Shown piece by piece: positions 6,295 to 57,826 of a stretch of DNA of 64,000 bases. The first letter of the stretch is position 1, and each line of letters opens with the position of its first letter. The stretch comes from an uncultured Actinomycetes bacterium. Lineage in GTDB: Bacteria > Actinomycetota > UBA4738 > HRBIN12. Under the pieces are notes generated by a model. It searched no databases. It worked only from the letters and a program-made list of their open reading frames with translations, and was not told the DNA's origin. A program made the translations under genes and the position numbers. The stretch is from the NCBI GenBank assembly GCA_963704725.1, contig OY969934.1, forward strand, positions 1,312,001 to 1,376,000, in the 5' to 3' direction.

Positions 6295-6440
6295 CGGCTC
6301 GGCCCGACCATCCACGGGGCCGCATCGTCGAACGCCGGACCGGGCCGGACGGGCCGCCGTCGACGGGCCGCAGGGCCGTGGGCGCGCGCCGATCGACGCG
6401 GTGCACTGGGCTGGATCGACCCCGAGGGAAGGAGTGGCCG

Positions 6441-7745
6441 GTGAGCGTCCGCTTCCACGTCCTGCCGGTCGCGTCGCCGCTCCACGATCCGGCGGCCCTG
6501 GCGAGCATGACCGAACGGTTCTCCGAGGCATTGGGTGGCATCGGCGGGGTCCTCGGGGGCGAGGCCGATCTCGAGGGCCCGGAACCGGTCCTGTTCCTGG
6601 TGCTCACCGGGGGGACCGAGGGCAGGCTGATCGACCTGTGGCGCCGGCGCGCGGCCACGCCGCACGCGGAGCCCGTGCACCTGCTCGCTCACCCGGGCCA
6701 GAACTCCCTGCCGGCCGCGATGGAGGCGCTGGCCGGGCTCCGGCAGCTCGGCGCGAGGGGCAGGATCCTCCCGCTGCCGGCCGAACCGGACGCCGAATCG
6801 GTGGCCGCCGTCGATCGCGCCGTTCAGGACCTCGAGGTTCGCTCGTGGCTCCGTCGGGGTCGGCTCGGACTCGTCGGTGCGCCGTCCGACTGGCTGGTCG
6901 CGAGCTCGCCCTCAGCCGCGGTCGTTCGCGGAACCTGGGGGCTCGAGGTCGTCCCGGTGGACATCGCGTCCGTCGCCGGGCGGTACCGGGCGGGCGACCC
7001 GGTCGAGGCCGAGCCGCTCGCCGAGTCGGTCTCCAGCGGTGCCCTCGAGGCGCTCGAGCCCACGCCCGAGGAGGTCGCCGAGGCGTCGCGGCTCTACCCC
7101 GCGCTGGAGGGCGTCGTGCGCGAGGAGGGACTGGACGCCGTCACCGTGCGGTGCTTCGACCTGCTCGGGGAGCTGAAGACCTCGGGGTGTCTGGCCCTGT
7201 CCCAGCTGCTCGACGACGGCGTGGTTGCGGGGTGCGAGGGCGACCTCGCGTCGGCCGTGGCGATGATCTGGACCCAGCGACTCCTGCACGCCGTCCCCTG
7301 GATGGCGAACCCGGCCTGGATCGATGGGGACGGCGGCACGGTCGTGCTCGCCCACTGCACCGTGGCGCGATCGCTCGTCGGACGATATCGACTGCGGTCC
7401 CACTTCGAGTCCGGGATCGGCGTGGGCATCCAGGGCGAGCTGCCGGCGGGCGACGTCACCCTGGTCCGCGTCGGCGGGCTCGAGCTCGAGCGGCTGTGGG
7501 TGGCCGACGGGGAGGCGCTCCCCGCACCGGCCCGGGAGGGCCTGTGCCGGACCCAGCTCACCGTGCGCCTCGACGCGCCGAGACTCGCGGAGCTGCTCCG
7601 GGACCCGCTCGGGAACCACATCGTCGCGGTCGCGGGGCACCACGCGGATCGGCTGCGCGAGTGGTGGGAGCTCATGGTGCCGGTGAGCGCCGATCGTCAA
7701 GCTCCGCTCGAGCCGGCTCGTCTGCCCGTTCCGGCCGCGCGCTAA
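6441..7745 (+). CDS. L-fucose/L-arabinose isomerase-like protein
   Basis: TVRCFDL, GCEGDL, MANP, AHCT, CRTQ, LGNH motifs; GAAGGAG RBS before GTG 6441. Confidence 0.75.
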   Translation: MSVRFHVLPVASPLHDPAALASMTERFSEALGGIGGVLGGEADLEGPEPVLFLVLTGGTEGRLIDLWRRRAATPHAEPVHLLAHPGQNSLPAAMEALAGLRQLGARGRILPLPAEPDAESVAAVDRAVQDLEVRSWLRRGRLGLVGAPSDWLVASSPSAAVVRGTWGLEVVPVDIASVAGRYRAGDPVEAEPLAESVSSGALEALEPTPEEVAEASRLYPALEGVVREEGLDAVTVRCFDLLGELKTSGCLALSQLLDDGVVAGCEGDLASAVAMIWTQRLLHAVPWMANPAWIDGDGGTVVLAHCTVARSLVGRYRLRSHFESGIGVGIQGELPAGDVTLVRVGGLELERLWVADGEALPAPAREGLCRTQLTVRLDAPRLAELLRDPLGNHIVAVAGHHADRLREWWELMVPVSADRQAPLEPARLPVPAAR

Positions 7746-10246
7746 CGCCCTCGCGGCCGCTCGAGGACGCATTCGTCCGGGAGCTTGTCGTCGCGCAGGC
7801 CCTTGAAGCTCGGGGCGCGCATCTTGTGGGTGCTCTTCGTGAGCTCGAGGTACTCGACCTCCGCGACGAGCTGCGGCTCGACGAAGGTGGCGCCCTTGAC
7901 CTTGCCGAGCTCCGGGTCGTCGCCGGCCGGGGTCTTCCGGACGAGCGGCTGGAGCGCGGCCATCAGCCGGTCGAGCGTCTGGTGCGTGAAGCCGGTCCCG
8001 ACCTGACCGACCCACAGCAGCTTGCCGTCGTCGTACGCGCCGACGAGGAGCGCACCGAAGGACCCCGACCGGCCGCCCTGGCCCGGGGTCCATCCGAGCA
8101 CCACGCAGTCCAGCGTGTTCGTGAGCTTGATCTTGCGCCAGTCGGGGGAGCGTCGGCCTGGCTGGTACCGCGATCCCTTCCGCTTGGCCACCACGCCCTC
8201 CAGGCCGAGGTCGCGGGCCACGCCGGCGAAGCGCTTGCCGTCGTGCTCCACGTGCGTGACGAGCTGGAGGCGCTCGTCGGTCTCGACCACGGCCAGGAGG
8301 AGCTCGCGGCGGTCCTCGAGGGGGAGGTCGACGAGGGGGCGTCCGTCGAGCCACAGGAGGTCGAAGGCGACGAGCGCCACGGGGATCTTGGCCGAGGCCC
8401 GCTTGATCTCCCGCTCGTTCGCCAGGTTCATCCGCTGCTGGAGGGCCTCGAACGAATTCCTGCCGTCGTCGTCGAACGCCACGATCTCCGCGTCCACGAC
8501 GGCGTTCACCTGATCGACCAGCTCGTGGATCATGTGGAGCTCCGGGTACTGGTAGGTGACGTCGCGCCCCCGGCGGGTCATCAGACGCGTGAGGTCGGTC
8601 GACAGGTACGTGGTCGAGCGGATCCCGTCGAACTTCGGCTCGAACCACCACTTCGCGTCGTCGAACGCCTTCCACCCGCCCTCCGCGAGCATCGGCTGGA
8701 TCGTCGGCGGCACGTCGATCAGCGGTGCCTCCTGGTGCGAGGCCAGGAACGCGAGCCAGTCGGTCCGGGTCTTCACGAAGTGGAACTCGAGCCCCGGGTA
8801 GCGCCGGCCGTGGAGCCGGAAGCTCACCTTCTTCTCGGTCCACTCGATCGGCTCGTACCAGCCGTCGTCGAAGATGCGGACCTCGCCGGCGCCGTAGTGG
8901 CCCTTCGGGATCGTGCCGCTGAAGCTGCCGTACTCGAGGGGGTGGTCCTCGGTGCGGACGGCCAGCCGTTTGTCGCGGTGTTGGACGGGGAGCCCGCGAG
9001 GGACCGCCCAGGAGGGGAGCGCCGCGTCGCGCTCGAGGCGGACGTCGTAATGCAGGCGGGTGGCGCGGTGCTTGTGGATCACGAAGGAGTTGCCCTGTCC
9101 CTCGGCGCCGCCGGGCGGTGGCTCCGTGGTCCCCTCCGGACCGAACGTGCGCTTGCGCAGGTACTCGCCGAGCTTCGGGTCCTTGGAGGCGGCGATCACC
9201 TCTTTGGAGGTCCGGGTGCGCTCCGGCTTCGAGGGCGCCGCGAAGGCCCTCGCGCTCGGGAGGCCGACCGCCTCGAGCGCCTGGGTCAGGTCCTGGGGCT
9301 CGGTCCGAACGCCCTCGAACAGGTCGCCGAGGCGGTCGAACCGCCCCCACACGTTCTCGATGCGGAAGTCCTGCGGCGTGAGCCCCGCCTCGACCTCGTC
9401 CCACCGCAGCGGCGTCGAGAGCGTGGCCCGGGCCTCGGGGCGCAGGGAGTAGGCCGCCGAGATGTTCGCTCCCGGGCGGTTCATGTTGTGGTCGATGAAC
9501 ACCTTGCCGGTGCGCTTGCTGATCTGCCAGGCCATCGTCACGCGGTCGCGATCGGCTCGCTCGATCATCCGTCCCACCGCGCCGACGAAGTCCCGGACCT
9601 GGTCGTAGGAGTAGCCGGGCACCACCGGCACGTAGATCTGCACGCCGGTCGCGCCGCTCGTCTTCGGGTACGTCACCAGGCCGAGCGCGTCGAGCGCCGC
9701 CTTCACGTGGATCGAGACCGCGAGCACGTCCTCGAAGCTCGCTCCCATGGGGTCGAGGTCGAAGAACAGGTAGTCGGGCTCCTGGAGGGAGGCGCAGCGG
9801 GAGTGGAGCGGGTGCATCTCGATGCAGCCGAGGTTCGCCACGTACAGCAGGGTCGAGAGGTCCTGCACCATCAGGTAGCCGATCACGCCGGTCTTCGCGT
9901 CGTCGCTCTCGACGTGGCAGCGCTCCACCCAGTCCGGGGTGTGGGAAGGCGCCGTCTTCTCGTAGAAGAAGCCCTCGCCGATGCCGTCGGGCATCCGCTT
10001 CATCGTGAGCGGCCGGTCGCGCAGGTACGGCAGGATCAGGTCGGCGACGTTGAAGTAGTAGGCGATGAGGTCACCCTTCGTGTAGCCCTCGTCGGGCCAG
10101 AACACCTTGTCCAGGTTCGACAGGCGGAGCTCGCGCCCGTCCGCCTCCATCCACCAGGCGTCGCCTCGCCGCTCGGCCTCGAGCGGTCGCGGGAACTCGA
10201 CCGTGAACGCGGGTCCCCCCGAGCGCCTCTGTCTCCTCGCCGGCAT
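7742..10246 (-). CDS. ligD: NHEJ DNA ligase D (polymerase-phosphoesterase-ligase)
   Basis: LSNLDKVFWP, FDLDP, KTSG (POL); HKHRATRLHYDVRLE, WAVPRG, EDHPLEY (PE); EPKFDG, EGVVAKR (LIG); divergent from ku. Confidence 0.95.
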   Translation of the reverse strand: MPARRQRRSGGPAFTVEFPRPLEAERRGDAWWMEADGRELRLSNLDKVFWPDEGYTKGDLIAYYFNVADLILPYLRDRPLTMKRMPDGIGEGFFYEKTAPSHTPDWVERCHVESDDAKTGVIGYLMVQDLSTLLYVANLGCIEMHPLHSRCASLQEPDYLFFDLDPMGASFEDVLAVSIHVKAALDALGLVTYPKTSGATGVQIYVPVVPGYSYDQVRDFVGAVGRMIERADRDRVTMAWQISKRTGKVFIDHNMNRPGANISAAYSLRPEARATLSTPLRWDEVEAGLTPQDFRIENVWGRFDRLGDLFEGVRTEPQDLTQALEAVGLPSARAFAAPSKPERTRTSKEVIAASKDPKLGEYLRKRTFGPEGTTEPPPGGAEGQGNSFVIHKHRATRLHYDVRLERDAALPSWAVPRGLPVQHRDKRLAVRTEDHPLEYGSFSGTIPKGHYGAGEVRIFDDGWYEPIEWTEKKVSFRLHGRRYPGLEFHFVKTRTDWLAFLASHQEAPLIDVPPTIQPMLAEGGWKAFDDAKWWFEPKFDGIRSTTYLSTDLTRLMTRRGRDVTYQYPELHMIHELVDQVNAVVDAEIVAFDDDGRNSFEALQQRMNLANEREIKRASAKIPVALVAFDLLWLDGRPLVDLPLEDRRELLLAVVETDERLQLVTHVEHDGKRFAGVARDLGLEGVVAKRKGSRYQPGRRSPDWRKIKLTNTLDCVVLGWTPGQGGRSGSFGALLVGAYDDGKLLWVGQVGTGFTHQTLDRLMAALQPLVRKTPAGDDPELGKVKGATFVEPQLVAEVEYLELTKSTHKMRAPSFKGLRDDKLPDECVLERPRGR

Positions 10247-11307: not shown

Positions 11308-12227
11308 GGCTTCCCGCCGGCTACGCCTCGCGCCCGGCCGGCTGGGACGATCTCGACGCGATCGTCGCGCTGTCCAAGGCGTGCGATCTCGTCGACGCCG
11401 GCGTGGAGGATCCCGTCCGCGAGCACATCGAGGACGACTGGCGCGTGCCGGGGGTCGACCTCGAGCGTCAGACGTCGCTCGTCCTCGCGCGAGACGGCTC
11501 GGTCGCCGCGTATGCGAACGTCTTCGGGCTGAATCCGCATCTGTCGGTCGAGGCGTGGGTGCGGGTCCATCCGGCCCATCGCGGCCGGGGGATCGGCGGG
11601 TCGGCGATCGACTGGACCCAGGAGCGGGCGCGGGAGCTCGTGCCGGCCGGAGCGGCCTCGAAGCTCTACAACTCCGTGCCCTCGACGGACGAGGCCGCGC
11701 GGCGGCTCCTGGCGGATCGGGACTACCGGCAGGTGCGGATCTTCTGGCACATGGAGCGTGAGCTCTCGGGGACGATCGAGCCCGCCCGTCCGCCCGAGGG
11801 GATCGAGCTGCGCACGTACCGGCACGAGGAGGACGCCGACGCCTACTTCGACGCGATCGAGGAGGCGTTCGCGGACCACTGGGGGTTCGAGCCGTATCCC
11901 CGCGAGGTCCACATGGACGAGATCCTCCGGTACGACCGGGACCTCCTCTGGCTCGCGCTCGACGGGGTCGAGATCGCCGGTGGGCTGATGGCCAAGACCG
12001 TCGAAGGGCGGGGGTGGGTGGACATGGTGGCGGTGCGACGCCCGTGGCGGGGCCGGGGGATCGCGCGATCGATGCTGCTCACCTCGTTCGCGGCGCTCGC
12101 CGGCCGGGGACTGGGCTCCGTGGCCCTCAACGTGGACTCGGAGAGCCGGACGGGGGCGACCCGCCTGTACGAGTCGGTCGGCATGCACGTGCGGCGGGCC
12201 TGGGACCTGTTCGAGCGGCCCCTGTAG
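11304..12227 (+). CDS. Tandem-domain GNAT acetyltransferase
   Basis: Two acetyl-CoA motifs (VHPAHRGRGIG; VRRPWRGRGIA), AFADHWG, TGATRLYESVGM; GTGA overlap with ku. Confidence 0.85.
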   Translation: MRLPAGYASRPAGWDDLDAIVALSKACDLVDAGVEDPVREHIEDDWRVPGVDLERQTSLVLARDGSVAAYANVFGLNPHLSVEAWVRVHPAHRGRGIGGSAIDWTQERARELVPAGAASKLYNSVPSTDEAARRLLADRDYRQVRIFWHMERELSGTIEPARPPEGIELRTYRHEEDADAYFDAIEEAFADHWGFEPYPREVHMDEILRYDRDLLWLALDGVEIAGGLMAKTVEGRGWVDMVAVRRPWRGRGIARSMLLTSFAALAGRGLGSVALNVDSESRTGATRLYESVGMHVRRAWDLFERPL

Positions 12228-43131: not shown

Positions 43132-43205
43132 TGCGGGGTGGAGCAGTCCGGTAGCTCGCTGGGCTCATAACCCAGAGGTCACGGGTTCAAATCCCGTCCC
43201 CGCGA
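43132..43205 (+). tRNA. tRNA-fMet (initiator, anticodon CAT), CCA not encoded
   Basis: Cloverleaf: TGCGGGG/CCCCGCG acceptor, GAGC/GCTC D-stem (A11:U24), CTGGG-CTCATAA-CCCAG with three G:C pairs, ACGGG-TTCAAAT-CCCGT. Confidence 0.97.
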
Positions 43206-43210
43206 CGAAG

Positions 43211-45042: not shown

Positions 45043-47673
45043 ATGGCTGAGCTGCCGACCGGGACCGTGACCTTCCTGTTCACGGACATCGAGGGTTCCA
45101 CCCGGCTCATGCACGAGCTGGGCGACCGGTACGCGGATGCCCTCCGGGCCCATCACGAGATCCTGCGTCGAGCCGTCGCGGACCACGAGGGCGTCGAGGT
45201 GAGCACGGCCGGCGACTCCTTCTTCGTGGCCTTCGCCTCCCCGTCGAGCGGCCTCGAAGCGGCGGTGGAGGCCCAGACGGCCCTCGCAGCCCACGCGTGG
45301 CCCTCGGACGACGCCCTGTCGGTCCGCATGGGCCTGCATACGGGGGAAGGCGCCGTGGGCGCCGACGGCTACGTCGGGCTGGACGTCAACCGGGCCGCGC
45401 GCATCGCCGCCGCCGCACACGGAGGGCAAGTCATCGTCTCGGAGGCCACGCGGTCGCTCGCCGAGCGCGCCGTTCCCGACGGCGTGACGCTCCGCGATCT
45501 GGGGGAGCACCGGCTCAGGGACATCGTCGACCCGGTGCGCCTGTTCGACCTCGTGATCGAGGGGCTCCCGTCCGAGTTCCCCCCTCCGCGGACCCTCGAC
45601 GCGCGCCCCAACAACCTCCCCGCGCAGCTCACCTCGTTCGTGGGGCGCGAGGACGAGATCGCGGAGGTCTCGAGGCTCTTGTCGCAGACACGGCTTCTCA
45701 CCCTCACCGGCCCGGGCGGGACCGGGAAGACGCGCCTGGCCGTGCAGGCCGCCCCGGAGCTGATGCTGGGCTTCGCCGACGGCGTCTACTTCGTCGACCT
45801 GTCCGCCGTGACCGATCCCGACCTCGTCCCGTCCGCCATCGCCAACGCCATCGGGATCCCGGAGGTGCCCGGGAGCCCGGTCCTCGAAGCCGTGAAGAAC
45901 CACCTCCGGACGAGGGAGCTGCTGCTGGTCATCGACAACTTCGAGCAGGTCGCGGACGCCGCGCCTCGGATCGGGGAGCTGCTCACCGCGGCGCCGAAGC
46001 TCAAGGTCCTGGTGACCTCGCGGTTCGTGCTGTCGGTGCCCGGTGAGCAGGAGTACGGCGTCCCGCCGCTCGAGCCGCCCGATCTGGATCGGCTCCCGGA
46101 CCTGCCCACCCTTCGGCGGGTGGAGGCGGTCCGGCTCTTCACGGACCGGGCCCTCGCGGTCCAACCGCAGTTCGAGATCACCGAGGACAACGCCCTCGCC
46201 GTCGCCGCCATCACGGCGCAGCTCGACGGCCTGCCCCTGGCCATCGAGCTCGCGGCCACCCGGACCAAGGTCCTGTCGCCCCAGCAGATGCTGCCGCGGC
46301 TGCAGCGGCGGCTGTCGATCCTGACGTCGGGAGCTCGCTCGCTCCCCGAGCGCCAGCGGACCCTCCGTCATGCGATCGCCTGGAGCCACGACCTCCTCGA
46401 CCCCGCCGAGCAGCGACTGTTCGCCCGGATGTCCGTGTTCCGGGGCGGGTGGGACGTCGAGGCGGCCGAGGTCATCTGCCATCCTCAGGACCTCGGGCTC
46501 GACGCCCTGGACGGGCTGACCTCGCTCGTCGACAAGTCTCTGATCCGAAAGAGCGAGGCCGGGTCGCGCTCGGTGCGGTTCTCCATGCTGGAGACGATCC
46601 GCGAGTTCGGCCTGGAGCAGCTCCACGCGATGAACGGCGTCGACATCACCCGCCGCCACGCCGAGTACTTCCTCGACCTGGCGATGGAGGCCGAGCCCCA
46701 TCTGACGGCCGACGATCAGGGCGAGTGGTTGGATCGCTGCGACGAGGAGCACCCCAACATCCGCGCCGCGCTCCGGTGGGCGGTCGAGGCCGGGGAGGCG
46801 GATCGCGCGCAGGACGCCGCCGGGGCCCTGTGGAGGTTCTGGCATCAGCGAGGGCACCTGGACGAGGGCCGGCGGTGGTTCGACGAGGTCCTGGCGATGC
46901 CGTCGGGGCAGGGATCGACGGCGGCCCGGGCCAGGGCGCTCCTCGGTGCCGGCGGGGTGGCCTGGTGGCAACGGGACCGCGACGCGACGGGCGCCTTCTA
47001 CAAGGAGGCCGTCGCGATCGAACGGGAGCTCGGGGACCCGGACCGGCTGGCCGAGGCGCTCTACAACCTCTCGTTCGTCGTGGCGGGGGACGACGTCGAC
47101 GCCGCCACGCCGCTTCTCCAGGAGAGCCTCTCCCTGTTCCGGCAGGTCGGCAACGAGGCCGGGATCGCCCAGGTCCTGTCGATGCTCGTGATCGAGGAGG
47201 CCAGGGCCGGCCGGTGGGACGCCGTGATCGCTCGGCTGGAGGAGACCACGACGATCTGGCGCCGGCTGGGCGATCGGCTCCACCTGGCGTTCGAGCTCGT
47301 CTGGCTGGCGTTCGCGTTCGGACGCACGGCCCGGCGGGAGGAGGCCCGCGCCGCGGCCCTGGATGCCCTTGAGCTGTTCCGGGAGGCGGACAATCCCACC
47401 GGCATCGGGATCATCCTGACCGACCTGGCCTTCCTCGCGACGTGGGAGGGCCGCCACGAGGACGCGCTCCGTCTGGCGGGGGCGGCGGAGTCGGTCCGTC
47501 AGCGGATCGGCGCGCCCCCCGGTGGCTTCGCCGGGATCCTCGAGGACGACCCGGCCGAAGAGGCTCGCGCTCACCTTCCGGACGACGCCTCGCGCTCGGC
47601 CTGGGAGGAGGGCCTCGCGATGAGCCTGGACGAGGCGGTGGCCTTCGGCCGGCGTTCGGCCGGGCAGGGCTAG
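45043..47673 (+). CDS. Class III nucleotide cyclase - STAND/NB-ARC ATPase - TPR protein
   Basis: FTDIEGST, AGDSFF, RMGLHTG, VNRAARI; GPGGTGKT, IDNFE, LDGLPLAIELAA; helical repeats. Confidence 0.92.
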   Translation: MAELPTGTVTFLFTDIEGSTRLMHELGDRYADALRAHHEILRRAVADHEGVEVSTAGDSFFVAFASPSSGLEAAVEAQTALAAHAWPSDDALSVRMGLHTGEGAVGADGYVGLDVNRAARIAAAAHGGQVIVSEATRSLAERAVPDGVTLRDLGEHRLRDIVDPVRLFDLVIEGLPSEFPPPRTLDARPNNLPAQLTSFVGREDEIAEVSRLLSQTRLLTLTGPGGTGKTRLAVQAAPELMLGFADGVYFVDLSAVTDPDLVPSAIANAIGIPEVPGSPVLEAVKNHLRTRELLLVIDNFEQVADAAPRIGELLTAAPKLKVLVTSRFVLSVPGEQEYGVPPLEPPDLDRLPDLPTLRRVEAVRLFTDRALAVQPQFEITEDNALAVAAITAQLDGLPLAIELAATRTKVLSPQQMLPRLQRRLSILTSGARSLPERQRTLRHAIAWSHDLLDPAEQRLFARMSVFRGGWDVEAAEVICHPQDLGLDALDGLTSLVDKSLIRKSEAGSRSVRFSMLETIREFGLEQLHAMNGVDITRRHAEYFLDLAMEAEPHLTADDQGEWLDRCDEEHPNIRAALRWAVEAGEADRAQDAAGALWRFWHQRGHLDEGRRWFDEVLAMPSGQGSTAARARALLGAGGVAWWQRDRDATGAFYKEAVAIERELGDPDRLAEALYNLSFVVAGDDVDAATPLLQESLSLFRQVGNEAGIAQVLSMLVIEEARAGRWDAVIARLEETTTIWRRLGDRLHLAFELVWLAFAFGRTARREEARAAALDALELFREADNPTGIGIILTDLAFLATWEGRHEDALRLAGAAESVRQRIGAPPGGFAGILEDDPAEEARAHLPDDASRSAWEEGLAMSLDEAVAFGRRSAGQG

Positions 47674-49212: not shown

Positions 49213-49308
49213 CGGCGGCCATCCTACCCGCGCCCCGGAGCCGCCCGCGGGATAGGATACGGTGCCCGTCGGGCCGGACCGCCCGCGTGCGGAAGGAGGA
49301 ACGCGCCG

Positions 49309-49728
49309 GTGTCTCATCACGACGTCCCGTCCAGGCTCGCGAACGTGCCGATCTTCTCCGGGTGCTCCAAGCGCGAGCTCGCGATCATCGCCCGAGCCGC
49401 CAAGGAGGTCTCGCACCGGGGCGGAGCGGTGATCGCGCGCGAGGGCGAGCGGGGCGTCGGCCTGTTCCTGATCATGGAGGGGCAGTGCTCCGTCACGATC
49501 GGCGGGAAGGCCAAGGCCATGCTCGGCCCCGGCGACTTCTTCGGCGAGGTGGCGCTGCTCGACGGGGGACCGCGCACGGCCACGGTCACCGCGATGGCGC
49601 CGGTCAAGCTCGTCGGCATCACCGGGTGGGTCTTCCGCGGACTCCTCATGGAGCATCCGTCGATCGCGCTGAAGACGCTCGAGGCCGTCGCCGGCCGCCT
49701 CCGGACGGTCTCGAAGGAGAGGGTCTAG
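49309..49728 (+). CDS. Stand-alone cyclic-nucleotide-binding domain protein
   Basis: VPIFSG, GDFFGEVALLDGGPRTATV phosphate-binding cassette, no HTH; AAGGAGG RBS. Confidence 0.88.
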   Translation: MSHHDVPSRLANVPIFSGCSKRELAIIARAAKEVSHRGGAVIAREGERGVGLFLIMEGQCSVTIGGKAKAMLGPGDFFGEVALLDGGPRTATVTAMAPVKLVGITGWVFRGLLMEHPSIALKTLEAVAGRLRTVSKERV

Positions 49729-49739
49729 CCCGTCCCGTC

Positions 49740-50504
49740 GTGCCCTTCGTCGAACGACCGGACGGGACGCGGTTGTATCTCGAGGTCGCCGGCGATCCGC
49801 GACGGATCCCGCTCGTGCTCCTCGAGGGTCTGGGCGGAGACGTCTCGGGGTGGCGACGGAACCTCCCGCACCTGGCGGCCGAGCTGTTCGTGATCGCCTA
49901 CGACCACCGAGGGAACGGTCGAAGCGAGGGGGCGGACGCGCCGACGACGATGAGGACCTACGTCGACGATTGCCTCGCCGTGCTGGACGAGCTCCGGCTC
50001 GAACGGGTCCACGTGTACGGGCAGTCGTTCGGCGGGGCGGTGGCGCTGGAGCTCGCGCTCACCCATCCCGAGCGGGTCCGCTCCGCGATCCTGGCGGCGA
50101 CGCATCCGGGAGCCCGCCACGCGGTGCCGTCCTCCGCGCGGTCGCCGAAGGACAAGCCCTGGCTGCAGCGCTACTCGACGGCGTTCGCCGAGGCGCATCC
50201 GGACCTCGTCCGTGAGGACCTCGGCCTCCAGGAGCGGCGGAGCCGGGCGGGGGAGCGCCGGCAGTGGGAGGCGATGCGGGCGTGGGACGCCTACGACCGG
50301 CTGGGCGACGTGGCCGTTCCGGTGCTCATCCTGCACGGGTCGCAGGACCGGCTGATGCATCCCGACAACGCCCGACTGCTGGCGGAGCGGATCCCGGGAG
50401 CCGAGCTCGAGCTCATCGAGGGCGCCGGGCACGCGTACCAGCTGGAGCGGGCAGAGGAGGCGGACGAGATCGTGCTCGGGTTCGTGCGGAGGCACCGCTC
50501 GTGA
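49740..50504 (+). CDS. Alpha/beta hydrolase
   Basis: YDHRGNGRS, GQSFGG nucleophile elbow, HGSQD, GAGH. Confidence 0.88.
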   Translation: MPFVERPDGTRLYLEVAGDPRRIPLVLLEGLGGDVSGWRRNLPHLAAELFVIAYDHRGNGRSEGADAPTTMRTYVDDCLAVLDELRLERVHVYGQSFGGAVALELALTHPERVRSAILAATHPGARHAVPSSARSPKDKPWLQRYSTAFAEAHPDLVREDLGLQERRSRAGERRQWEAMRAWDAYDRLGDVAVPVLILHGSQDRLMHPDNARLLAERIPGAELELIEGAGHAYQLERAEEADEIVLGFVRRHRS

Positions 50505-51412
50505 CCGAGGCTCCGAAAGACGTCCGCTCGCTCGCCGAGGAGCGCGGGGCGGCTCGCGCGGCGAGGGACTTCGCTCGCGCCGACGCGCTCCGTGACCGGA
50601 TCGCGGAGCTCGGCTACCGGGTGGTCGACGAGCCCGGCGGATGGTCGCTGGTGCCGCTCCAGGTCGAGGCGCCGTCGACCGCGCGACGGGCCGCGCGCGA
50701 CGTCGAGAGCGTCCTCGACGAGCCGCCGAGCGCCGACGTCACCGTGCACTGGGTCGTGCAGGGGTGGCCCGAGGACGTCGTCCGAGCGCTCGCCGGCTTC
50801 CGCGCGCACGCCGGCGAGCGCTCGGTCCAGTACGTCGTCGCGGACCTGACCGAGACCGATCCGGCCGTCTATGGCGACGGCGTCGAGGTGCTCCCCCTCG
50901 AACCCGGAACCGGCTGGGGCGCTGCCCGCAACGCCGGCCTGAAGCGGTCACGAGGGCGGATCGTGATCGTGATGGACGGCTCGGTCGAGCCGAGCGGCGA
51001 CGTGATCGGTCCTCTCGTACATGCGCTTTCCGACGACGCCGTCGGCGTATGCGGTCCGTTCGGCATCTCCACGGAAGACCTCCGCGAGTTCCACGAGAGC
51101 GACGGCCCCGAGGTCGACGCCGTCGAGGGATACCTCATGGCGATGCGGCGCGACGTGATGCGCGACGTCGGCCTGTTCGACGAGCGGTTCCGCTGGTACC
51201 GGACCGCCGACATCGAGCTCTGCTTCCGCCTGAAGGACGCCGGGCTCCGAGCCTTGGTGGTCGACGTGCCGGTCGCCCGGCACGAGCATCGCATGTGGCG
51301 GGCCACGCCGCCCGACGAGCGCGACCGCCTGTCCAAGCGCAACTACTACCGGTTCCTCGAGCGGTTCCGGGACCGGGTGGACCTGCTGGTCAACCCACCC
51401 GCCGCGGACTGA
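50501..51412 (+). CDS. GT2-fold glycosyltransferase-like protein with N-terminal CysRS C-terminal-like domain
   Basis: N-term ERGAARAARDFARADALRDRIAELGYRVVD; C-term GWGAARNAGL, VGLFDERF..DIELCFRL. Confidence 0.78.
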   Translation: MTEAPKDVRSLAEERGAARAARDFARADALRDRIAELGYRVVDEPGGWSLVPLQVEAPSTARRAARDVESVLDEPPSADVTVHWVVQGWPEDVVRALAGFRAHAGERSVQYVVADLTETDPAVYGDGVEVLPLEPGTGWGAARNAGLKRSRGRIVIVMDGSVEPSGDVIGPLVHALSDDAVGVCGPFGISTEDLREFHESDGPEVDAVEGYLMAMRRDVMRDVGLFDERFRWYRTADIELCFRLKDAGLRALVVDVPVARHEHRMWRATPPDERDRLSKRNYYRFLERFRDRVDLLVNPPAAD

Positions 51413-51421
51413 CCCGGAGCC

Positions 51422-53422
51422 TCAGGGCCGGGGAGGCGGCGGTTGGACGACGACGTCGGGCCCGCTCGCCGCCGGGACCCGACCGTTGCCGCGCAGGTCC
51501 CGGCGGAGATCCTCGAGCGAGGGGATCGGCTTGGAGCCGTCGAAGTAGGCGTGCAGGTCCGGGCCGTCGATGACCTCGGTCAGGATCAGGATCTCGGCCA
51601 TCTGTTGGAGGAAGCCGCGGTGCTCCAACAGCACGGTCGTGGCTCGATCGTGCGCCTCGTTCACCAATCGGGCCGTCTCCTCGTCCACCAGCGCGGCGAG
51701 GTCGTTGGAGAGCTCGGGGCTCGCGCCCGGGTAGAACATGCGCGCCTCTGCGCGGAGCCCGTCGTGGCCGAACGAGAGCGGCCCGACCTTCGGGCTCATG
51801 CCGTACTCGGTCACCATGGCCCGCGAGATCTCCGTGGCGCGCTCGAGGTCGTTCTGCGCCCCGGTGGAGATGATCTTGTCGAAGACGATCTCCTCGGCGG
51901 TTCGACCGCCGAGGAGCACCGTGAGGCGGTCGTTGAGCTCGGGCTCGGTGAGCAGGTAGCGGTCCTCGAGCGGCCGCTGCATCGTCATGCCGAGCGCCGC
52001 GGCGCCGCGGGGGATGATCGAGACGCGGTGGACGGGGTCGGCCGTCGGCGCGGTGAGCGCCACGAGCGCGTGGCCCATCTCGTGGACGGCGACGCGCTCC
52101 TTGTCCTTCTCGGACATCACGCGGCTCTTGCGCTCGAGACCGGCGACCGTGCGGTCGATCGCCTCCTCCAGCTCGATCATCGTGACGGCGTTCTTCTCCT
52201 TGCGCGCCGCGAGGAGCGCGGCCTCGTTGACCACGTTCGCCAGATCGGCGCCGGTGAACCCCGGCGTCCGCGAGGCCAGGATCCGCAGGTCGACGGCGGG
52301 GTCGAGCGCGACGCCTCGGATGTGAACGCGCAGGATCTCCTCGCGGCCCTTGAGGTCGGGCTGGTCGACCACCACCTGGCGGTCGAACCGTCCCGGGCGC
52401 ACCAGCGCCGGGTCGAGGACGTCGGGGCGGTTCGTCGCGGCCATGATGATGACGCCCTTGCTCGCGTCGAACCCGTCCATCTCGACGAGGAGCTGGTTCA
52501 GGGTTTGCTCTCGCTCGTCGTGCCCGCCGAAGCTCCCGCCCAGGGCCCCGGCGCGGCCCTTGCCGATCGTGTCGATCTCGTCGAGGAACACGAGCGCCGG
52601 CGCCTTCTCCTTGGCCTGCTGGAAGAGGTCCCGCATCCGCGCCGCGCCGAGCCCGACGAACATCTCGACGAACTCCGACCCGCTCATGAAGAAGAAGGGG
52701 ACGTTCGCCTCGCCGGCGACGGCCCGGGCGAGCAGCGTCTTTCCGCAACCCGGGGGGCCGAGCAGGAGCACGCCCTTGGGGATCCGACCGCCGAGCCGCT
52801 GGTACTTCTTCGGGTTCCGCAGGAACTCGACGATCTCCTTGAGCTCGTCCTTGGCCTCGTCGACGCCGGCGACGTCATTGAACGTCGTCTTCATCTCCTT
52901 GCGGTCGTAGATCTTGACCTTGTTGCGGCCGAGGTTGAGCGCCGCGCCCGCCTGGGCGCCGCTCATGCGGCGGATCAGGAAGAACCACAGCAGGCCGAAC
53001 AGCAGGAGCGGCGCGACCCATCCGATCAGGAAGCTCGAGAACACGTTCGGCGAGACTCCCGTGTAGTCGACGTTGGCGTCCTGCAGTCGGTTGGTGGGAT
53101 CCGCGGTGCCCACCAGGGTCGGCGGGATCGTCGCCGTGACGTTCTCGGTCCCCCCGCCGGCCTTCTGCGACTCCCCGCTCAACGAGGTCTGCGAGATGTC
53201 CACCGTCCCCACGATCTGGCCGCTCTCGGCCCGGCGCAGGAACTCGGAGTAGTCGATCGTTTTGGGACGGGGGGCGGCGATGTAGTTGAAGATGACCAGC
53301 ACGACCAGGAAGCCCAGCACCCACACCCAGGGCGACGAGCGCACGCGCCGGGGCTCGCCCGAGGACCCGCCCCCGAAGTCGAACCCCTGCCACTTGCCGC
53401 GCCGGTCGTTGCCGTTTGCCAT
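51422..53422 (-). CDS. ftsH: ATP-dependent zinc metalloprotease FtsH
   Basis: Two TMs, [36 protein letters not shown]. Confidence 0.95.
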
Positions 53423-53606: not shown

Positions 53607-54194
53607 GTGGCACGTAGCCAGGCGGCGCCCCCCGCGGACGCCGCGCTCCGCGCGCGGTTCGAGCGCGACGTCCTGCCCCTGCTCCCGAACCTGTACGGCG
53701 CCGCGCTCCGGCTCACCCGGAACCCTCAGGACGCGGAGGATCTCATCCAGGAGACGTACCTGCGTGCCTTCCGAGGGTTCGGGGGGTTCGAGGAAGGCAC
53801 GAACCTGCGCGCGTGGATGTACCGGATCCTGACGAACACGTTCATCAACACGTATCGCAAGCGCCAGCGGGAACCGGTCACGGTCCAAGACGACGAGATC
53901 GAGGACTGGTTCCTGTACGAGCGGCTCGGAGAGTCCGGCGTCGAGGCGTCGGCGGAGACCGAGGTCCTGGAGAAGATTCCGGACGAAGACGTCCAGCGAG
54001 CGCTGGAGGACCTGCCGGAGAACTTCCGGATGGCCGTGCTGCTCGCGGACGTCGAGGGGTTCAGCTACAAGGAGATCGCGGAGATCCTGGACATCCCGAT
54101 CGGCACCGTGATGTCGCGCCTGCACCGGGGAAGGAAAGCGCTGCAGAAGGCGTTGTGGGAGACGGTTAGGGAGCGTGGACTTGTCACCGACTGA
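53607..54194 (+). CDS. sigH: ECF sigma factor, SigH/SigR type
   Basis: [45 protein letters not shown]; followed by ZAS anti-sigma. Confidence 0.9.
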
Positions 54195-54435
54195 CTGCGA
54201 GCACGTGCTCCGCCAGATCGAGCTCTACCTCGACGGTGAGCTCGTGGGGCTGGAGCGCGTCGACATCGAACGGCACCTGGGGGAGTGCTCCCCCTGCAGC
54301 GGCCACTCCGAGTTCCAGCGCCGTCTCAAGGAGATGCTCCGGGCCAAGTGCGGCTGCAACGACGTCCCGGTGGAGCTCCTGGAGCGCGTCCGGTCCATGA
54401 CCTCGGCGCCGCACCCCCATCCGCCCGTGGCCTAG
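54175..54435 (+). CDS. rshA: Zinc-binding anti-sigma factor (RshA/RsrA type)
   Basis: [15 protein letters not shown] (HxxxCxxC) plus extra Cys; overlaps sigH. Confidence 0.88.
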
Positions 54436-54767: not shown

Positions 54768-54876
54768 GCGTCTCCGTCGCCGTTCCGGTCGACGTTCGGC
54801 GTCCAACCCGGCATGATTCCCTCTCACATCGGGTCACACGCTCATCGGTCAAGGTTCGTGCGTGGTGGGGGCGGCG

Positions 54877-55587
54877 ATGGACGAGCTCGGGACGATCCTG
54901 GGGGTGTGGGCACACCCCGACGACGAGACCTACCTGTCCGCGGCGCTGATGGCCCGTGCCGTCCGAGCCGGCTCGCGCGTCGTGTGCGTGACCGCGACGC
55001 GGGGCGAGGGCGGCTCGATGGACGAGGAGCGATGGCCGCCCGAGAAGATGGGTGAGGTCCGCACCGCCGAGCTCCAGCGCTCGATGGAGATCCTCGGCGT
55101 CACCGAGCACCACTGGCTCGACCTCCCCGACATCGACATGGACACCGGGCTGCCCGAGGAGGGCTACGCGCGGGTCCGCGGCCTCGTCGCCGAGGTCCGG
55201 CCGGACACGATCCTCACGTTCGGACCGGAGGGGATGACCGGCCACGAGGCTCACAAGACCGTCTCGCGCTGGGCGACGCGGGCCCTGCGCGAGGCCGGCG
55301 AGCCCGGCTCCCGCGTGCTCTACGCCTGCGTGACGCCGGAGTGGGCGGCCGAGTTCCTGCCGATCTGGGAGCCGTTCAACGTGTTCCTCCCCGGTACCCC
55401 GAGGGTCGTGCCGCCCGAGGAGCTCTCGATCGACTACCGGCCGCCGGACGACATCCTCGAGATCAAGGTCAACGCGATCAACGCCCACGTGAGCCAGATC
55501 GAGTCGATCCTGCAGGCCGTGGGCGACGAGACGTGGTGGCGGCAGATGTCGTTCGAGGGCTTCCGGCTCGGCGAGGAGAAGCGGTGA
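54877..55587 (+). CDS. PIG-L-family deacetylase
   Basis: WAHPDDE, ATRGEGG, GMTGHEAH, HVSQ. Confidence 0.88.
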   Translation: MDELGTILGVWAHPDDETYLSAALMARAVRAGSRVVCVTATRGEGGSMDEERWPPEKMGEVRTAELQRSMEILGVTEHHWLDLPDIDMDTGLPEEGYARVRGLVAEVRPDTILTFGPEGMTGHEAHKTVSRWATRALREAGEPGSRVLYACVTPEWAAEFLPIWEPFNVFLPGTPRVVPPEELSIDYRPPDDILEIKVNAINAHVSQIESILQAVGDETWWRQMSFEGFRLGEEKR

Positions 55588-57095
55588 CCGACTCGCCGAA
55601 CCCGTTCGGCGATCTCGACTGGGATCCGGCGCGCGCGCGCGCCTTCACGGCCCGGGTGGCGGGGCTGTACGAGGAGTTCCTCACCCGCCTCCCGGAGCTC
55701 CCCATCACGCACGGCCGGAGCTGGGCGGAGGTCCGGGAGGCCGTGGCGATCGAGGTGCCCGAGGAGCCCATGGCCGACGACGACCTCATCGCGTACCTGC
55801 GCGAGGTCGTGTTCGAGCAGTCGACGTTTCCCGGGCATCCGCGCTTCATGGCCTACGTGTCGGGGGCGGGAACCGTGCCTGGCGCCGCGGCCGACCTGCT
55901 CGCGGCGGGAATCAACATGAACGCCGGGGGGTGGATGCTGTCCCCGGCCGCCACCGAGATCGAGCTCCAGCTCACGCGAACCCTCGCCTCGTGGTTCGGG
56001 TTGCCGCCGGGGTCCGGCGGGATCGTGGTCTCGGGCGGCGCGATGGCCAACTTCGTCGCGCTGAAGGCGGCCCGCGACCACGGCGCGGGGTGGGACGTCC
56101 GCCGCGCCGGCGTCTCGGCCGGGCCGCCGCTGGCCCTCTACCTGTCCGAGGAGACGCACGTCGTGTCGTCCCGGGCCGCCGACATGCTGGGGCTGGGGAC
56201 CGACGCGGTGCGGACGATCCCCGTCGGCGGCGACTACCGCGTCCGCCTCGACGCGCTGCGCGAGGCGATCGCCGCCGATCGGGCGGCGGACGTGCGGCCG
56301 TTCGCCGTCGTGGCCTCGGCCGGCACGGTCGCCACGGGGGCGATCGACCCGCTGGGGGCGATCGCGGATCTGTGCGAGGACGAGGGCCTGTGGTTCCACG
56401 TCGACGCCGCGTACGGGGGGCCCGCGGCGTTCACGGACGATCTCCGCCCGCTGTTCGACGGGATCGAGCGAGCGGACTCGATCGCGTTCGACCCGCACAA
56501 GTGGCTCTACACGCCGCTCACGGGAGGATGCGTGCTGGTCCGGGACATGCAGACGCTACCGGACTCGTTCTCGGTGACGGCCTCGTACACGTACCAGGAC
56601 AAGGAGCGCACCGGGCGCGGCGTGGACGGCACGCAGCTCGGGCCGCAGTTCTCGCGCGGCTTCTGGGCCCTGAAGGTGTGGCTCTCGCTCCTCGCGCACG
56701 GCCGGGTCGCATACGCGCGCCGGATCTCGCACGACGCCGAGCTGGCCCGCTACCTCGGCTCGCGCACCGAGGAACGGCCCGACTTCGAGCTCAGCTGTCC
56801 CGTCGGCCTGTCGATCTGCTGCTTCCGGTACGTCCCGCCCGACCTGCCGCACGCCGAGGGTCGCGAGGAGTACCTGGATCTGCTCAACGAGCGGCTCATG
56901 ACCGAGGTGCAGCAGGAGGGGCGGGTGTTCTTCTCCAACGCCGTGCTGCGGGGACGGTTCGTGCTCCGCGTGTGCATCGTGAACTTCCGCACGGAGGCCA
57001 CGGACCTCGACGCCGTGCTGGACGTGGCGGCCGAGACCGGCGAGCGCCTGGACGCCGAGCTCCGGCCGGCCGGGCTCCGACAGGGGGCGGCGTGA
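55584..57095 (+). CDS. Group II PLP-dependent amino-acid decarboxylase
   Basis: HPRFMAYV, SGGAMAN, GTVATGAIDPL, HVDAAYGG, DPHKW PLP lysine; GTGA overlap. Confidence 0.92.
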   Translation: MTDSPNPFGDLDWDPARARAFTARVAGLYEEFLTRLPELPITHGRSWAEVREAVAIEVPEEPMADDDLIAYLREVVFEQSTFPGHPRFMAYVSGAGTVPGAAADLLAAGINMNAGGWMLSPAATEIELQLTRTLASWFGLPPGSGGIVVSGGAMANFVALKAARDHGAGWDVRRAGVSAGPPLALYLSEETHVVSSRAADMLGLGTDAVRTIPVGGDYRVRLDALREAIAADRAADVRPFAVVASAGTVATGAIDPLGAIADLCEDEGLWFHVDAAYGGPAAFTDDLRPLFDGIERADSIAFDPHKWLYTPLTGGCVLVRDMQTLPDSFSVTASYTYQDKERTGRGVDGTQLGPQFSRGFWALKVWLSLLAHGRVAYARRISHDAELARYLGSRTEERPDFELSCPVGLSICCFRYVPPDLPHAEGREEYLDLLNERLMTEVQQEGRVFFSNAVLRGRFVLRVCIVNFRTEATDLDAVLDVAAETGERLDAELRPAGLRQGAA

Positions 57096-57826
57096 GCGGG
57101 CGAGCCATGGCCCTGCTCGGCTCCGGCGAGTTCGACCCGTGGTCCGAGCCCGTCGACCGGTGGCTCCTCGAGCGGTCGCGGAACCCCGACGGCGTCGTGC
57201 TCGTCGCGCCCACGGCCGCCGCGCACGAGGGCGAGGCGTCGTTCTCGTCCTGGGGCTCCAAGGGGCTGGAGCACTACCGATCCCTCGGCCCGCCCGCGGA
57301 GGTGCTGGAGCTCCGCACGCGGGAGGACGCGTTCCGCGACGAGATCGTCGGCCGGCTCGACGACGCCTCCCTCGTCTTCTTCTCGGGGGGGAACCCGGCA
57401 CGCCTGGCCGAGGCTCTCCGCGACACCCCGTTCTGGTCGGCGCTGTGCTCGGCCCTCGGCGACGGGCTCCCCTACGCGGGGTGCAGCGCCGGCGTGGCGT
57501 GCCTCACCGAGCGCACGTACGACAGCGAGACGCAGGACTTCGAGGGGATGTGGAAGCCGGGGATCGGGTTCGTCCACGGGACGCTCTTCGGACCGCACTG
57601 GGACATCGTCGACTCGTGGGTGCCCGGCGCGAGCGAGTTCATCGTGGGCTCGGTGACGGACGGGCAGGTGTTCGTGGGCCTGGACGAGGACACCGCGATG
57701 GTCGGCGACGGACACGAGTGGTCGGTGCTCGGGCGGCAGGGGATCCACGTCCGGCGCAACGGCGACTGGGCCACGTACCGGGAGGGCGACGCCTTCGAGC
57801 TCGACCTTCCGCTGGACGGCGACTGA
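57092..57826 (+). CDS. Peptidase S51 / cyanophycinase-like protein
   Basis: LLGSGEF, PTAA, FSGGNP, GCSAG (Ser), GPHWD (His), GLDEDT (Glu); GTGA overlap. Confidence 0.82.
   Translation: MSGRAMALLGSGEFDPWSEPVDRWLLERSRNPDGVVLVAPTAAAHEGEASFSSWGSKGLEHYRSLGPPAEVLELRTREDAFRDEIVGRLDDASLVFFSGGNPARLAEALRDTPFWSALCSALGDGLPYAGCSAGVACLTERTYDSETQDFEGMWKPGIGFVHGTLFGPHWDIVDSWVPGASEFIVGSVTDGQVFVGLDEDTAMVGDGHEWSVLGRQGIHVRRNGDWATYREGDAFELDLPLDGD

Follow-up and report, generated by a model that had tools for sequence, protein, structure and literature searches.

What is the anticodon-binding domain of a tRNA synthetase doing at the front of a glycosyltransferase? The question is raised by a gene at 50501..51412 (forward strand) of the 64,000-nucleotide stretch of DNA analysed here (the window), which comes from contig OY969934.1 (positions 1,312,001 to 1,376,000) of an uncultured Actinomycetes bacterium. 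The open reading frame (ORF) and its translation give a protein of 303 residues plus a stop codon, made up of a mini-domain related to the C-terminus of cysteinyl-tRNA synthetase (CysRS; Pfam CysS_C), a linker, and a GT-A domain; we refer to it as the CysS_C-GT2 protein. The GTG start codon shares the sequence GTGA with the stop codon of an alpha/beta hydrolase gene upstream, and the database protein P0002 is an identical 303-residue call, so the start agrees with an independent gene call; the ORF is a real gene. We propose, with a probability of roughly 45%, that the protein is a transferase tethered to tRNA-Cys for which Cys-tRNA-Cys is a target or a co-reactant, with cysteine-sugar thiol metabolism as a possible setting; this function, and with it the tRNA-Cys binding, the substrate and the pathway, is predicted from the lines of evidence set out below.

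The N-terminal module (residues 4-52; 50510..50656, forward strand) is composed of two helices (residues 6-20 and 24-36) and a beta-hairpin (strands 39-44 and 47-52), and the first-pass annotation of this stretch had taken residues ~8-50 to be the CysRS C-terminal domain on the strength of a sequence motif, which the protein does contain. Pfam CysS_C (PF23493, 'cysteinyl-tRNA ligase anticodon binding domain') matches residues 4-46 (E 8e-5) at 23.1 bits against a curated cut-off of 23; such a thin margin counts against our proposal, and the call was therefore tested in four other ways. When the whole genome was scanned in six frames with PF23493, only two sites scored above cut-off, the C-terminus of the genome's own CysRS (30.7 bits) and the CysS_C-GT2 site (25.4 bits, the second best). 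In a phmmer search of PDB sequences, residues 7-47 pair with residues 415-455 of E. coli CysRS in a gap-free alignment (E 0.018), and the mini-domain matches the CysRS of Coxiella and Borrelia as well. By BLASTP, residues 3-47 align gaplessly with residues 410-454 of the genome's own CysRS, with 21/45 positions identical (47%, E 4e-9).

The fourth line is structural. The first 60 residues modelled alone have a predicted local distance difference test (pLDDT) score of 87.9, and the top Foldseek match of this model is 1u0b_B, from the E. coli CysRS:tRNA-Cys complex, with a root-mean-square deviation (rmsd) of 1.2 A over 46 columns, 39% identity, and a template-modelling (TM) score of 0.71 normalised by the query; the second match is the Borrelia CysRS 3sp1_B. 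VIA-align, which is independent of Foldseek, places 3sp1_B first (Z 7.6, rmsd 1.8, 50 residues aligned, chain positions 428-480), with the next row at Z 5.5. Searches with the whole model by either program list GT-A enzymes only, and CysRS surfaced with the N-terminal domain modelled alone. The earlier assignment is thus borne out by PF23493, phmmer and the identity with the genome's own CysRS, and again by structure prediction, where the N-terminus models as the CysRS C-terminal fold and CysRS is the best match in two independent searches. The protein's first ~50 residues are a true copy of the domain with which CysRS binds the anticodon.

The protein is not itself a CysRS, as it (P0001) has no match to the class I catalytic domain PF01406. 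Relative to the CysRS C-terminal domain (PF23493; E. coli CysRS ~406-461, PDB 1U0B) it shares the helix-helix-beta-hairpin fold and the residues aligned with contacts to anticodon base G34, but it sits at the N-terminus of a transferase and has no synthetase body. The genome contains one CysRS-family gene, and this single complete CysRS gene lies elsewhere (G000:C1:1981115-1982497, minus strand). Many homologues in JGI are labelled 'cysteine-tRNA ligase' because the name was transferred from fused relatives that are described below, and the present analysis corrects the misleading name 'cysteinyl-tRNA synthetase' on many homologues that have no synthetase body.

If the module has been retained for its ability to bind tRNA, the residues that touch the anticodon should be retained too. 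The gapless phmmer alignment equates R15, R19, F24, D28, R31 and D43 of the window protein with R423, R427, W432, D436, R439 and D451 of E. coli CysRS, respectively. In the E. coli enzyme G34 hydrogen-bonds with R427 and D436 and makes a pi-contact with W432, which an excerpt of PMC12684709 gives as previously described (Hauenstein 2004), adding from that paper's own analysis further, water-mediated contacts in which D436 and R423 take part; an excerpt of PMC13449415 has R427, W432, D436 and R439 changed to alter anticodon use. The window protein carries R15, R19, F24 and D28 at the positions aligned with G34 contacts, and R31 nearby.

These residues are also conserved among the relatives. An exhaustive HMMER search with the 303-residue protein gave 3290 matches at E 1e-3 and 126 at E 1e-30, and residue counts were made over the non-gap rows of an alignment of 150 cluster representatives from it. 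R15 is present in 103/110 rows, R19 in 101/114, an aromatic residue at position 24 in 100/106, D28 in 101/104, R31 in 96/107, G38 in 100/106, and D43 in 104/107, an overall range of 89-97%. In a second set, of 37 diverse stand-alone members of full length that share 31-62% identity with the query, R15, D28 and D43 are three of the four invariant columns, and R19, A27 and G38 are three of the ten nearly invariant ones. Residues 8-48 have a mean pairwise identity of 42.3%, as against 34.8% in the GT domain and 23.3% in the linker (49-77), so that no other region of the protein is as well conserved as the mini-domain. Judged from these alignments, the kept surface residues are what would be expected if the module still reads a G34-type anticodon, and they would be hard to explain if it were a mere structural relic.

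The linker proper (residues 53-77; 50657..50731, forward strand) is poorly conserved, and the pLDDT for the block of residues 51-60 is 62, in a full-length AlphaFold2 model with a mean pLDDT of 95.0 and a predicted TM score of 0.80. Beyond it is a GT-A fold transferase domain (residues 78-303; 50732..51409, forward strand). Pfam Glycos_transf_2 (PF00535; E 1.9e-10, 41.4 bits, cut-off 23.3) and Glyco_tranf_2_3 (PF13641; E 1.8e-8, 35.2 bits, cut-off 27) both match within residues 124-283, and VIA-align recovers the GT-A fold at residues 75-303, with mouse GalNAc-T1 (8v9q_A; Z 18.5, rmsd 3.1, 225 residues aligned), the archaeal mannosyltransferase PcManGT (6yv7_A; Z 18.5) and SpsA (1h7l; Z 16.4) among the matches; Foldseek with the full model finds GalNAc-T2 at E 5e-12. 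The first-pass description of this part as GT2-like is therefore correct. Its further description as degenerate is not, since D115, D159, S161, E163 and D237 are conserved across the 150 representatives. The strings on which it relied are all present (VVADLT at 112-117, MDGS at 158-161 and AD at 236-237), but they do not represent decayed motifs, and the register of the comparison with VVDNGS was off by one.

The motifs of the GT domain are D115, D159-x-S161-x-E163, D167, R216-R217, Y233-R234, D237, H261-x-H263 and a C-terminal LSKRNYYRFL helix. Among the representatives D115 is kept in 103/130 rows, D159 in 112/130, S161 in 98/128 (with H in 9), E163 in 111/131, D167 in 107/128, R217 in 122/129 and D237 in 113/123, and in the alignment the D115 column is the D of VVDNGS in fused relatives. 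At the DxD position the window protein reads D159-G-S161, with the first Asp kept and a non-acidic third position, and the family consensus is D-x-S-x-E. As far as the alignment indicates, the metal motif takes this form throughout the family, in place of DxD; the form resembles the D-x-H of ppGalNAc-transferases, and HMMER aligns the two. D115 would be the nucleotide-pocket Asp, D159 the acidic residue of the DxD position, and D237 a candidate catalytic base. The window protein carries every conserved GT residue of the family, although a few members (P0130, P0134, P0171, P0178) lack the first Asp of D-x-S, and because these residues are conserved the GT domain is probably an active enzyme.

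Compared with GT2/GT27 enzymes of the GT-A class (ppGalNAc-T1/T2, PcManGT, SpsA, WrtF), the family has the same fold over residues 75-303 (Z 16-18.5) and the equivalents of D115, D159 and D237, with sequence-level matches to ppGalNAc-T around the D-x-H and Gal/GalNAc-T motifs. It differs in having D-x-S-x-E rather than DxD or DxH, in its own C-terminal motifs RHEHRxW and LSKRNFYRFL, and in carrying a tRNA-synthetase domain. That the nearest structures (ppGalNAc-T, PcManGT, WrtF, SpsA) are protein- and glycan-directed favours an ordinary GT2 enzyme that acts on a non-RNA acceptor (a small molecule, lipid, protein or wall polymer), with CysS_C as a fusion relic used for folding, oligomerisation or docking (e.g. 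beside CysRS or an S51-type serine hydrolase) and no tRNA involved. So do GT-only relatives of ~230-270 residues, whose existence means that the GT chemistry does not strictly need a tRNA reader. We nevertheless regard this explanation as unlikely, if still a serious contender: in a relic or docking module one would expect neither that the G34-aligned residues are kept at 89-97% over sequences 31-62% identical nor that conservation is higher there than anywhere else in the protein, and the mini-domain is found on S51 hydrolases as well, which points to a shared ligand and not to a structural accident.

A further connection of the family to tRNA-Cys comes from its fused relatives. In proteins of 720-820 residues the whole query (residues 4-298) aligns to the C-terminal part, and Pfam places a complete CysRS catalytic domain (PF01406, E down to 1e-96) at the start, ahead of CysS_C and then GT2. 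These CysRS-CysS_C-GT2 proteins occur in Ktedonobacteria and, under the name 'cysteine-tRNA ligase', in Roseiflexaceae, the SAR202 cluster and Candidatus Dormibacteria. When species genomes were scanned with an alignment of four fusions (A3), 80 loci were retained, nearly all titled Chloroflexota, with one metagenome-assembled genome titled Proteobacteria. Cultured carriers include Thermogemmatispora carboxidivorans, T. aurantia, T. tikiterensis, Dictyobacter kobayashii and D. aurantiacus. Each of these five genomes (G001-G005) contains three CysRS-family genes over the Pfam cut-off including the fusion, with a borderline fourth match in Dictyobacter, and the corresponding open frames are of ~397-449, ~451-514 and ~800-900 residues, the last being the fusion. 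As two further CysRS-family genes are present in 5/5 cultured genomes, the fusion is a dedicated extra paralogue and not a housekeeping CysRS with a tail. Six of seven fusion clusters have kept intact the motifs of a synthetase (zinc-ligand Cys, H-I/V/L-G-N, WHIEC, HTGG...HHE, KMAKS), which have decayed in the seventh, P0228.

This arrangement recalls LysX of Mycobacterium, a LysRS fused to lysyl-phosphatidylglycerol synthase and thus a tRNA-dependent transferase linked to an aminoacyl-tRNA synthetase. In LysX, as in the 720-820-residue proteins, a non-ribosomal transferase is joined to an additional synthetase paralogue dedicated to it; the family described here, however, has a GT-A fold and not an MprF-type domain, and the window protein keeps the anticodon reader only. 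We know of no aminoacyl-transfer chemistry for GT-A folds. Taken together, the conserved G34-aligned residues, the full CysRS-CysS_C-GT2 fusions and the position of the mini-domain as the most conserved region strengthen the link to tRNA-Cys. We also observed that the Roseiflexaceae and Ktedonobacteria fusions (P0176, P0179, P0182, P0186) have a conserved His-rich C-terminal tail, RW-x-GHDHP with many HxH repeats, which is seen in L008, L054, L065 and other fusion loci (match about 6001-8400) and suggests metal binding; it is absent from the window protein.

Other genes recur around the Chloroflexota fusions. A gene for a ~540-residue sugar oxidoreductase, weakly ThuA-like (27.9 bits, under cut-off) as well as Gfo/Idh/MocA-like, is adjacent in 35/46 loci, a setting that would suit an ordinary GT2 enzyme; YqeY, Lon-N and BipA are present in 22, 17 and 12 of the 46, and may reflect plain synteny. 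An S51 gene lies within the flanks in 13/46.

The S51 hydrolases provide a second set of fusions. The window encodes an S51 (cyanophycinase/PepE-like) serine hydrolase at 57107..57826 (forward strand; PF03575, E 1.6e-14), 5.7 kb downstream of the CysS_C-GT2 gene, in which S127, H164, D193 and E194 do not vary across 13 aligned homologues, as would suit an active serine hydrolase. In P0171 (593 residues) the first 250 residues align with this protein (23% identity, E 3e-7) and are followed by CysS_C and GT2. A search with the first 335 residues of P0171 gave 358 matches, and among those listed are about 50 clusters of S51-CysS_C-GT2 proteins of 549-617 residues, some named 'GT2 family glycosyltransferase/cyanophycinase-like exopeptidase', and many S51-CysS_C proteins of 342-433 residues that have no GT2 (e.g. 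P0356, P0361-P0365). A search for longer relatives of the window S51 protein gave only six matches, none with CysS_C. The mini-domain is thus preceded by CysRS or S51 and followed by GT2, and all combinations of these occur, in a network that spans Actinomycetota, Chloroflexota and Dormibacteria. The S51-CysS_C family resembles the window protein in placing the CysRS anticodon mini-domain on a non-synthetase enzyme in Actinomycetota and Chloroflexota, and S51-CysS_C-GT2 joins the two; it differs in that the window genome carries the reader on the GT protein and encodes its two S51 paralogues as free-standing proteins. The second of these (G000:C1:1678650-1679361, forward strand) is ~230 residues long, lacks CysS_C and is 47% identical to the window S51. 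In two of the six longer relatives of the window S51, P0305 and P0306, the end of a group II pyridoxal phosphate (PLP) decarboxylase is linked to the S51 protein; the genes for these two enzymes are neighbours at window 55590-57826, and the joined proteins may be either real fusions or run-on gene calls.

The GT and S51 genes also tend to occur together. GT homologues were scored at E 1e-20 and S51 genes at E 1e-25 in the same 401 Actinomycetota genomes (three of them, G093, G087 and G153, flagged unpublished), and a cross-tabulation by hand, with no statistical test, gives 46 genomes with both, 5 with S51 only, 27 with GT only and 323 with neither, a strong association across the phylum. A prediction of the complex of the GT protein with the window S51 returned a score of 0.00 and a mark of 0.32, and was counted neither way. 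CysRS is proposed as a partner because it is fused to CysS_C-GT2 in Chloroflexota, and S51 because it is fused, adjacent or co-occurring; the S51 hydrolase is likely a working partner of the CysS_C-GT2 protein.

The family is conserved and widespread. GT homologues are present in 73 of the 401 Actinomycetota genomes, including 22/22 of the window genome's own family, 2/2 in each of three other families of the order and 0/3 in a fourth. More distant families labelled f11 and f15 have them in 16/21 and 18/21 genomes, f49 and f50 in one genome each, and the large families listed by name in none. In Chloroflexota they occur in 65 of 251 sampled genomes, and 29 of the 70 matches listed there are in open frames of at least 640 residues; some genomes have both forms. 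The CysS_C-GT2 architecture is already visible to annotation pipelines, the automated ESM Atlas having clusters named 'Cysteinyl-tRNA ligase anticodon binding/Glycosyl transferase family 2'. A literature search that did not extend to subscription journals found no paper on a CysRS anticodon-domain/GT fusion, a CysRS paralogue-GT, a Cys-tRNA/S51/thiol link or PF23493.

How might such a protein work? In the proposal that we favour, of a transferase tethered to tRNA-Cys, the mini-domain would dock on the GCA anticodon through the Arg, Asp and aromatic residues that read G34 in CysRS, and the flexible ~25-residue linker would let the transferase domain reach the tRNA cargo (Cys-tRNA-Cys) or a substrate made from it. 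The GT-A domain could then add a sugar to the tRNA-bound cysteine, hold an amino-sugar acceptor to which the cysteinyl group is passed, or modify the tRNA itself, and the protein would work with CysRS and an S51-type serine hydrolase. The pathway would be cysteine-sugar (low-molecular-weight thiol) metabolism, in lineages where the cysteine ligase MshC is not found. If the mini-domain does tether a GT-A enzyme to tRNA-Cys, bacteria would have a new class of tRNA-directed or aminoacyl-tRNA-dependent enzyme; we know of no bacterial example of a tRNA-tethered GT-A enzyme. It could explain the cysteine-adding step in lineages with MshA, PIG-L and RsrA where MshC is not found, and the family offers a handle on the low-molecular-weight thiols of deep Actinomycetota and Chloroflexota. 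The parts are of known kinds, GT-A transferases and synthetase-derived tRNA-binding modules on other enzymes, and their combination has a fair chance of marking a new tRNA-dependent pathway. The cultured carriers of the fused form in Thermogemmatispora and Dictyobacter make the question testable.

The third of these options is a rival explanation in its own right, and corresponds to the first-pass suggestion of an analogy with QTGAL. A tRNA-modifying glycosyltransferase would use the mini-domain to hold the tRNA-Cys anticodon while the GT-A domain attaches a sugar to one of the nucleosides in the anticodon arm, as a bacterial counterpart of QTGAL. The conserved anticodon-reading residues are in keeping with this, as is the location of the GT directly after the anticodon-binding domain, which would put it near the anticodon arm in both fused and stand-alone forms. 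To our knowledge, no glycosylated nucleoside is known in bacterial tRNA-Cys, and no synthetase-derived anticodon domain is known on QTGAL or QTMAN. These animal glycosyltransferases of queuosine-34 in tRNA-Tyr and tRNA-Asp do provide a precedent for sugar transfer to tRNA (excerpt of bioRxiv 10.64898/2026.06.28.735034), and the resemblance is that the window protein, too, would direct sugar transfer to one particular tRNA. Queuosine, though, occurs in tRNAs with GUN anticodons, according to the abstract of PMC12313893, and tRNA-Cys(GCA) is outside this group, such that a queuosine target is not expected in tRNA-Cys and the QTGAL analogy fits poorly. Modification of the anticodon arm would also leave the S51 fusions and linkage and the dedicated, catalytically intact extra CysRS unexplained, and we consider it distinctly improbable.

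The thiol pathway is suggested by what lies near the gene and by what the genome appears to lack. Downstream of the CysS_C-GT2 gene and the convergent ftsH (see below) are a sigH and rsrA-type anti-sigma pair (53607..54435, forward strand), a regulator type of thiol-oxidative stress, and a PIG-L family deacetylase/amidase (54862..55587, forward strand; PF02585, E 1.1e-28). The sigma factor scores 269.6 bits with TIGR02947 (SigH_actino; cut-off 251.55) and the anti-sigma 62.9 bits with the RsrA model TIGR03988 (cut-off 62.5), and the PIG-L protein is MshB/BshB2/Mca-like at sub-cut-off scores (TIGR03445 66.8 bits, TIGR04000 65.1 bits). Elsewhere in the genome is an MshA equivalog (G000:C1:696396-697604) just above its cut-off (465 versus 462.5 bits), and MshA is above cut-off in 28/36 genomes of the order, four of which are flagged unpublished; the unannotated list of ORFs around the genome's MshA gene has nothing obviously related. 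Neither MshC nor BshC was found in the genome, and the MshC model matches only CysRS (E 1e-66). The own lineage thus has a first enzyme of mycothiol-like type, a deacetylase type and a regulator, and the known cysteine ligase was not found in it, a pattern that fits a tRNA-dependent cysteine-adding step. The CysS_C-GT2 protein is not itself a GT4 enzyme of the MshA/BshA type, as its fold is GT-A and the MshA equivalog is a different gene. The genome has one tRNA-Cys(GCA) among 54 tRNA calls.

The parallel with mycothiol and bacillithiol synthesis (MshA/BshA of GT4, MshB/BshB of PIG-L, and the CysRS-derived ligase MshC) is that the window locus has a GT, a PIG-L protein, a CysRS-derived module and an RsrA-type regulator; the differences are that the GT fold is GT-A and not GT-B/GT4, and that it is the anticodon domain of CysRS that has been kept. 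MshC is not known to have this domain. A specific version of our proposal is that the CysS_C-GT2 and S51 proteins replace MshC: CysRS would charge tRNA-Cys, the mini-domain would hold the anticodon, the D-x-S-x-E pocket would bind either the aminoacylated 3' adenosine or an amino-sugar acceptor, and cysteine would pass to a glucosamine-type acceptor. We think this version quite unlikely. There is no clean anti-correlation of GT and MshC across the phylum, with MshC over cut-off in only 27/401 genomes and f11 having MshC-like genes as well as the GT gene, and the idea of MshC replacement holds for some lineages only, the own family among them. If true, it would constitute a tRNA-dependent route to a mycothiol-like thiol and the first GT-A fold in aminoacyl-tRNA-dependent chemistry.

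Several observations weigh against a tRNA-Cys-tethered transferase in thiol metabolism, in addition to the thin Pfam margin and the GT-only relatives. The MshA equivalog already supplies the sugar-transfer step of mycothiol type, leaving a second transferase without an obvious role. Neither the S51 link nor the missing MshC is universal: in f11 an S51 gene is found in 0/21 genomes at E 1e-25, though 16/21 have the CysS_C-GT2 gene, and many f11 genomes have MshC-like genes (~380-415 bits, under cut-off) alongside the GT gene. The co-occurrence with S51 rests on a few clades (the own order, f15 and f49) and not on independent events. In f13 the GT homologues, in 8/10 genomes, match only from residue 64-75 onward, and the GT ORFs read in two loci have no CysS_C. 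We considered that each system might have one adaptor, in which case f13, with a GT lacking the N-terminal domain, was expected to have S51-CysS_C; the five f13 genomes checked instead have two complete CysRS genes each (both matches were read in one genome) and no separate CysS_C adaptor. Finally, the synteny of the own order may be plain inheritance, and the GT gene sits in a conserved tRNA-Met/tRNA-Trp housekeeping region.

That synteny was examined in 14 same-order loci of ~17 kb each. In the window, a cyclic nucleotide monophosphate (cNMP)-binding protein gene (49249..49728, forward strand; PF00027, E 2.2e-16) heads an apparent three-gene unit and is separated by 2 bases from the alpha/beta hydrolase gene (49731..50504, forward strand; PF00561, E 1.2e-34), whose stop overlaps the GT gene start. 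The latter two genes are likely co-translated, and all three look like one transcription unit. The ftsH gene (51422-53422, reverse strand) converges on the GT gene, with its stop 9 bases past the GT gene stop. Between the PIG-L and S51 genes is a group II PLP-dependent decarboxylase (55590..57095, forward strand; PF00282, E 1.3e-64). Among the 14 loci, convergent ftsH and sigH-rsrA beyond it are present in all, the upstream cNMP-binding gene in 12, the alpha/beta hydrolase directly upstream of the GT gene in 5, PIG-L within 8 kb in 9, the PLP decarboxylase within 8 kb in 6, and S51 in 9. In the distant families f15 and f11, a gene for an extracytoplasmic function (ECF) sigma factor directly follows the GT gene on the same strand in 4/4 loci.

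The recurrence of sigma factor genes, next to the GT gene in two distant families and near it throughout the own order, raises the alternative of a sensor or regulator that binds tRNA-Cys to report the cysteine supply, with a GT-A domain that is ligand-binding or weakly active and tied to the SigH/RsrA thiol-stress response. The members that lack the D of the D-x-S motif and the dead synthetase body of the fusion cluster P0228 are compatible with such a role. Most members keep all of the GT catalytic-type residues, however, charged and uncharged tRNA are indistinguishable by anticodon binding alone, and the joining of the family to S51 and CysRS suggests an assembly line of enzymes; a sensor is highly improbable.

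Some minor observations concern the same genome and loci. Its best MshD-like match (TIGR03448, 61.9 bits versus a cut-off of 163, profile positions 10-287) is weak; the ORF is at 11349-12191 (forward strand) of the same window as the thiol-type genes (G000:C1:1323349-1324191), and may be a two-GNAT acetyltransferase. ARAGORN calls a tRNA-Sec(TCA) and an odd 90-nucleotide 'tRNA-???' with a four-base anticodon (cggg) at G000:C1:588367-588459 and 2024947-2025036, as well as several over-long tRNA-Pro genes; the odd calls may be false in DNA of 72% G+C.

In two f13 loci (L136, 7164-8149; L137, 7157-8067; minus strand) the neighbourhood of the reader-less GT gene is unlike that of the own order, with the GT gene followed by an ArsR-type helix-turn-helix-like gene and an SRPBCC/Aha1-like gene, as judged by eye. 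No tRNA-Cys gene is near any of 60 loci scanned, where only tRNA-Met, tRNA-Thr and tRNA-Trp were seen. A tRNA-Met gene lies ~1-8 kb from the GT gene in 17/18 Actinomycetota loci scanned, that of the window being a tRNA-Met(CAT) at 43132-43206 (forward strand), and the order in f15 and f11 is (tRNA-Thr,) tRNA-Met, GT, sigma, tRNA-Trp, with tRNA-Thr in 3/4 loci; the shared tRNA-Met/tRNA-Trp setting places the GT gene in an old housekeeping neighbourhood. Upstream in the window, at 45043-47673 (forward strand), an 876-residue protein combines an adenylate/guanylate cyclase domain with a STAND-type NTPase and TPR repeats, and the cNMP-binding gene of the GT unit starts 1.6 kb downstream of it.

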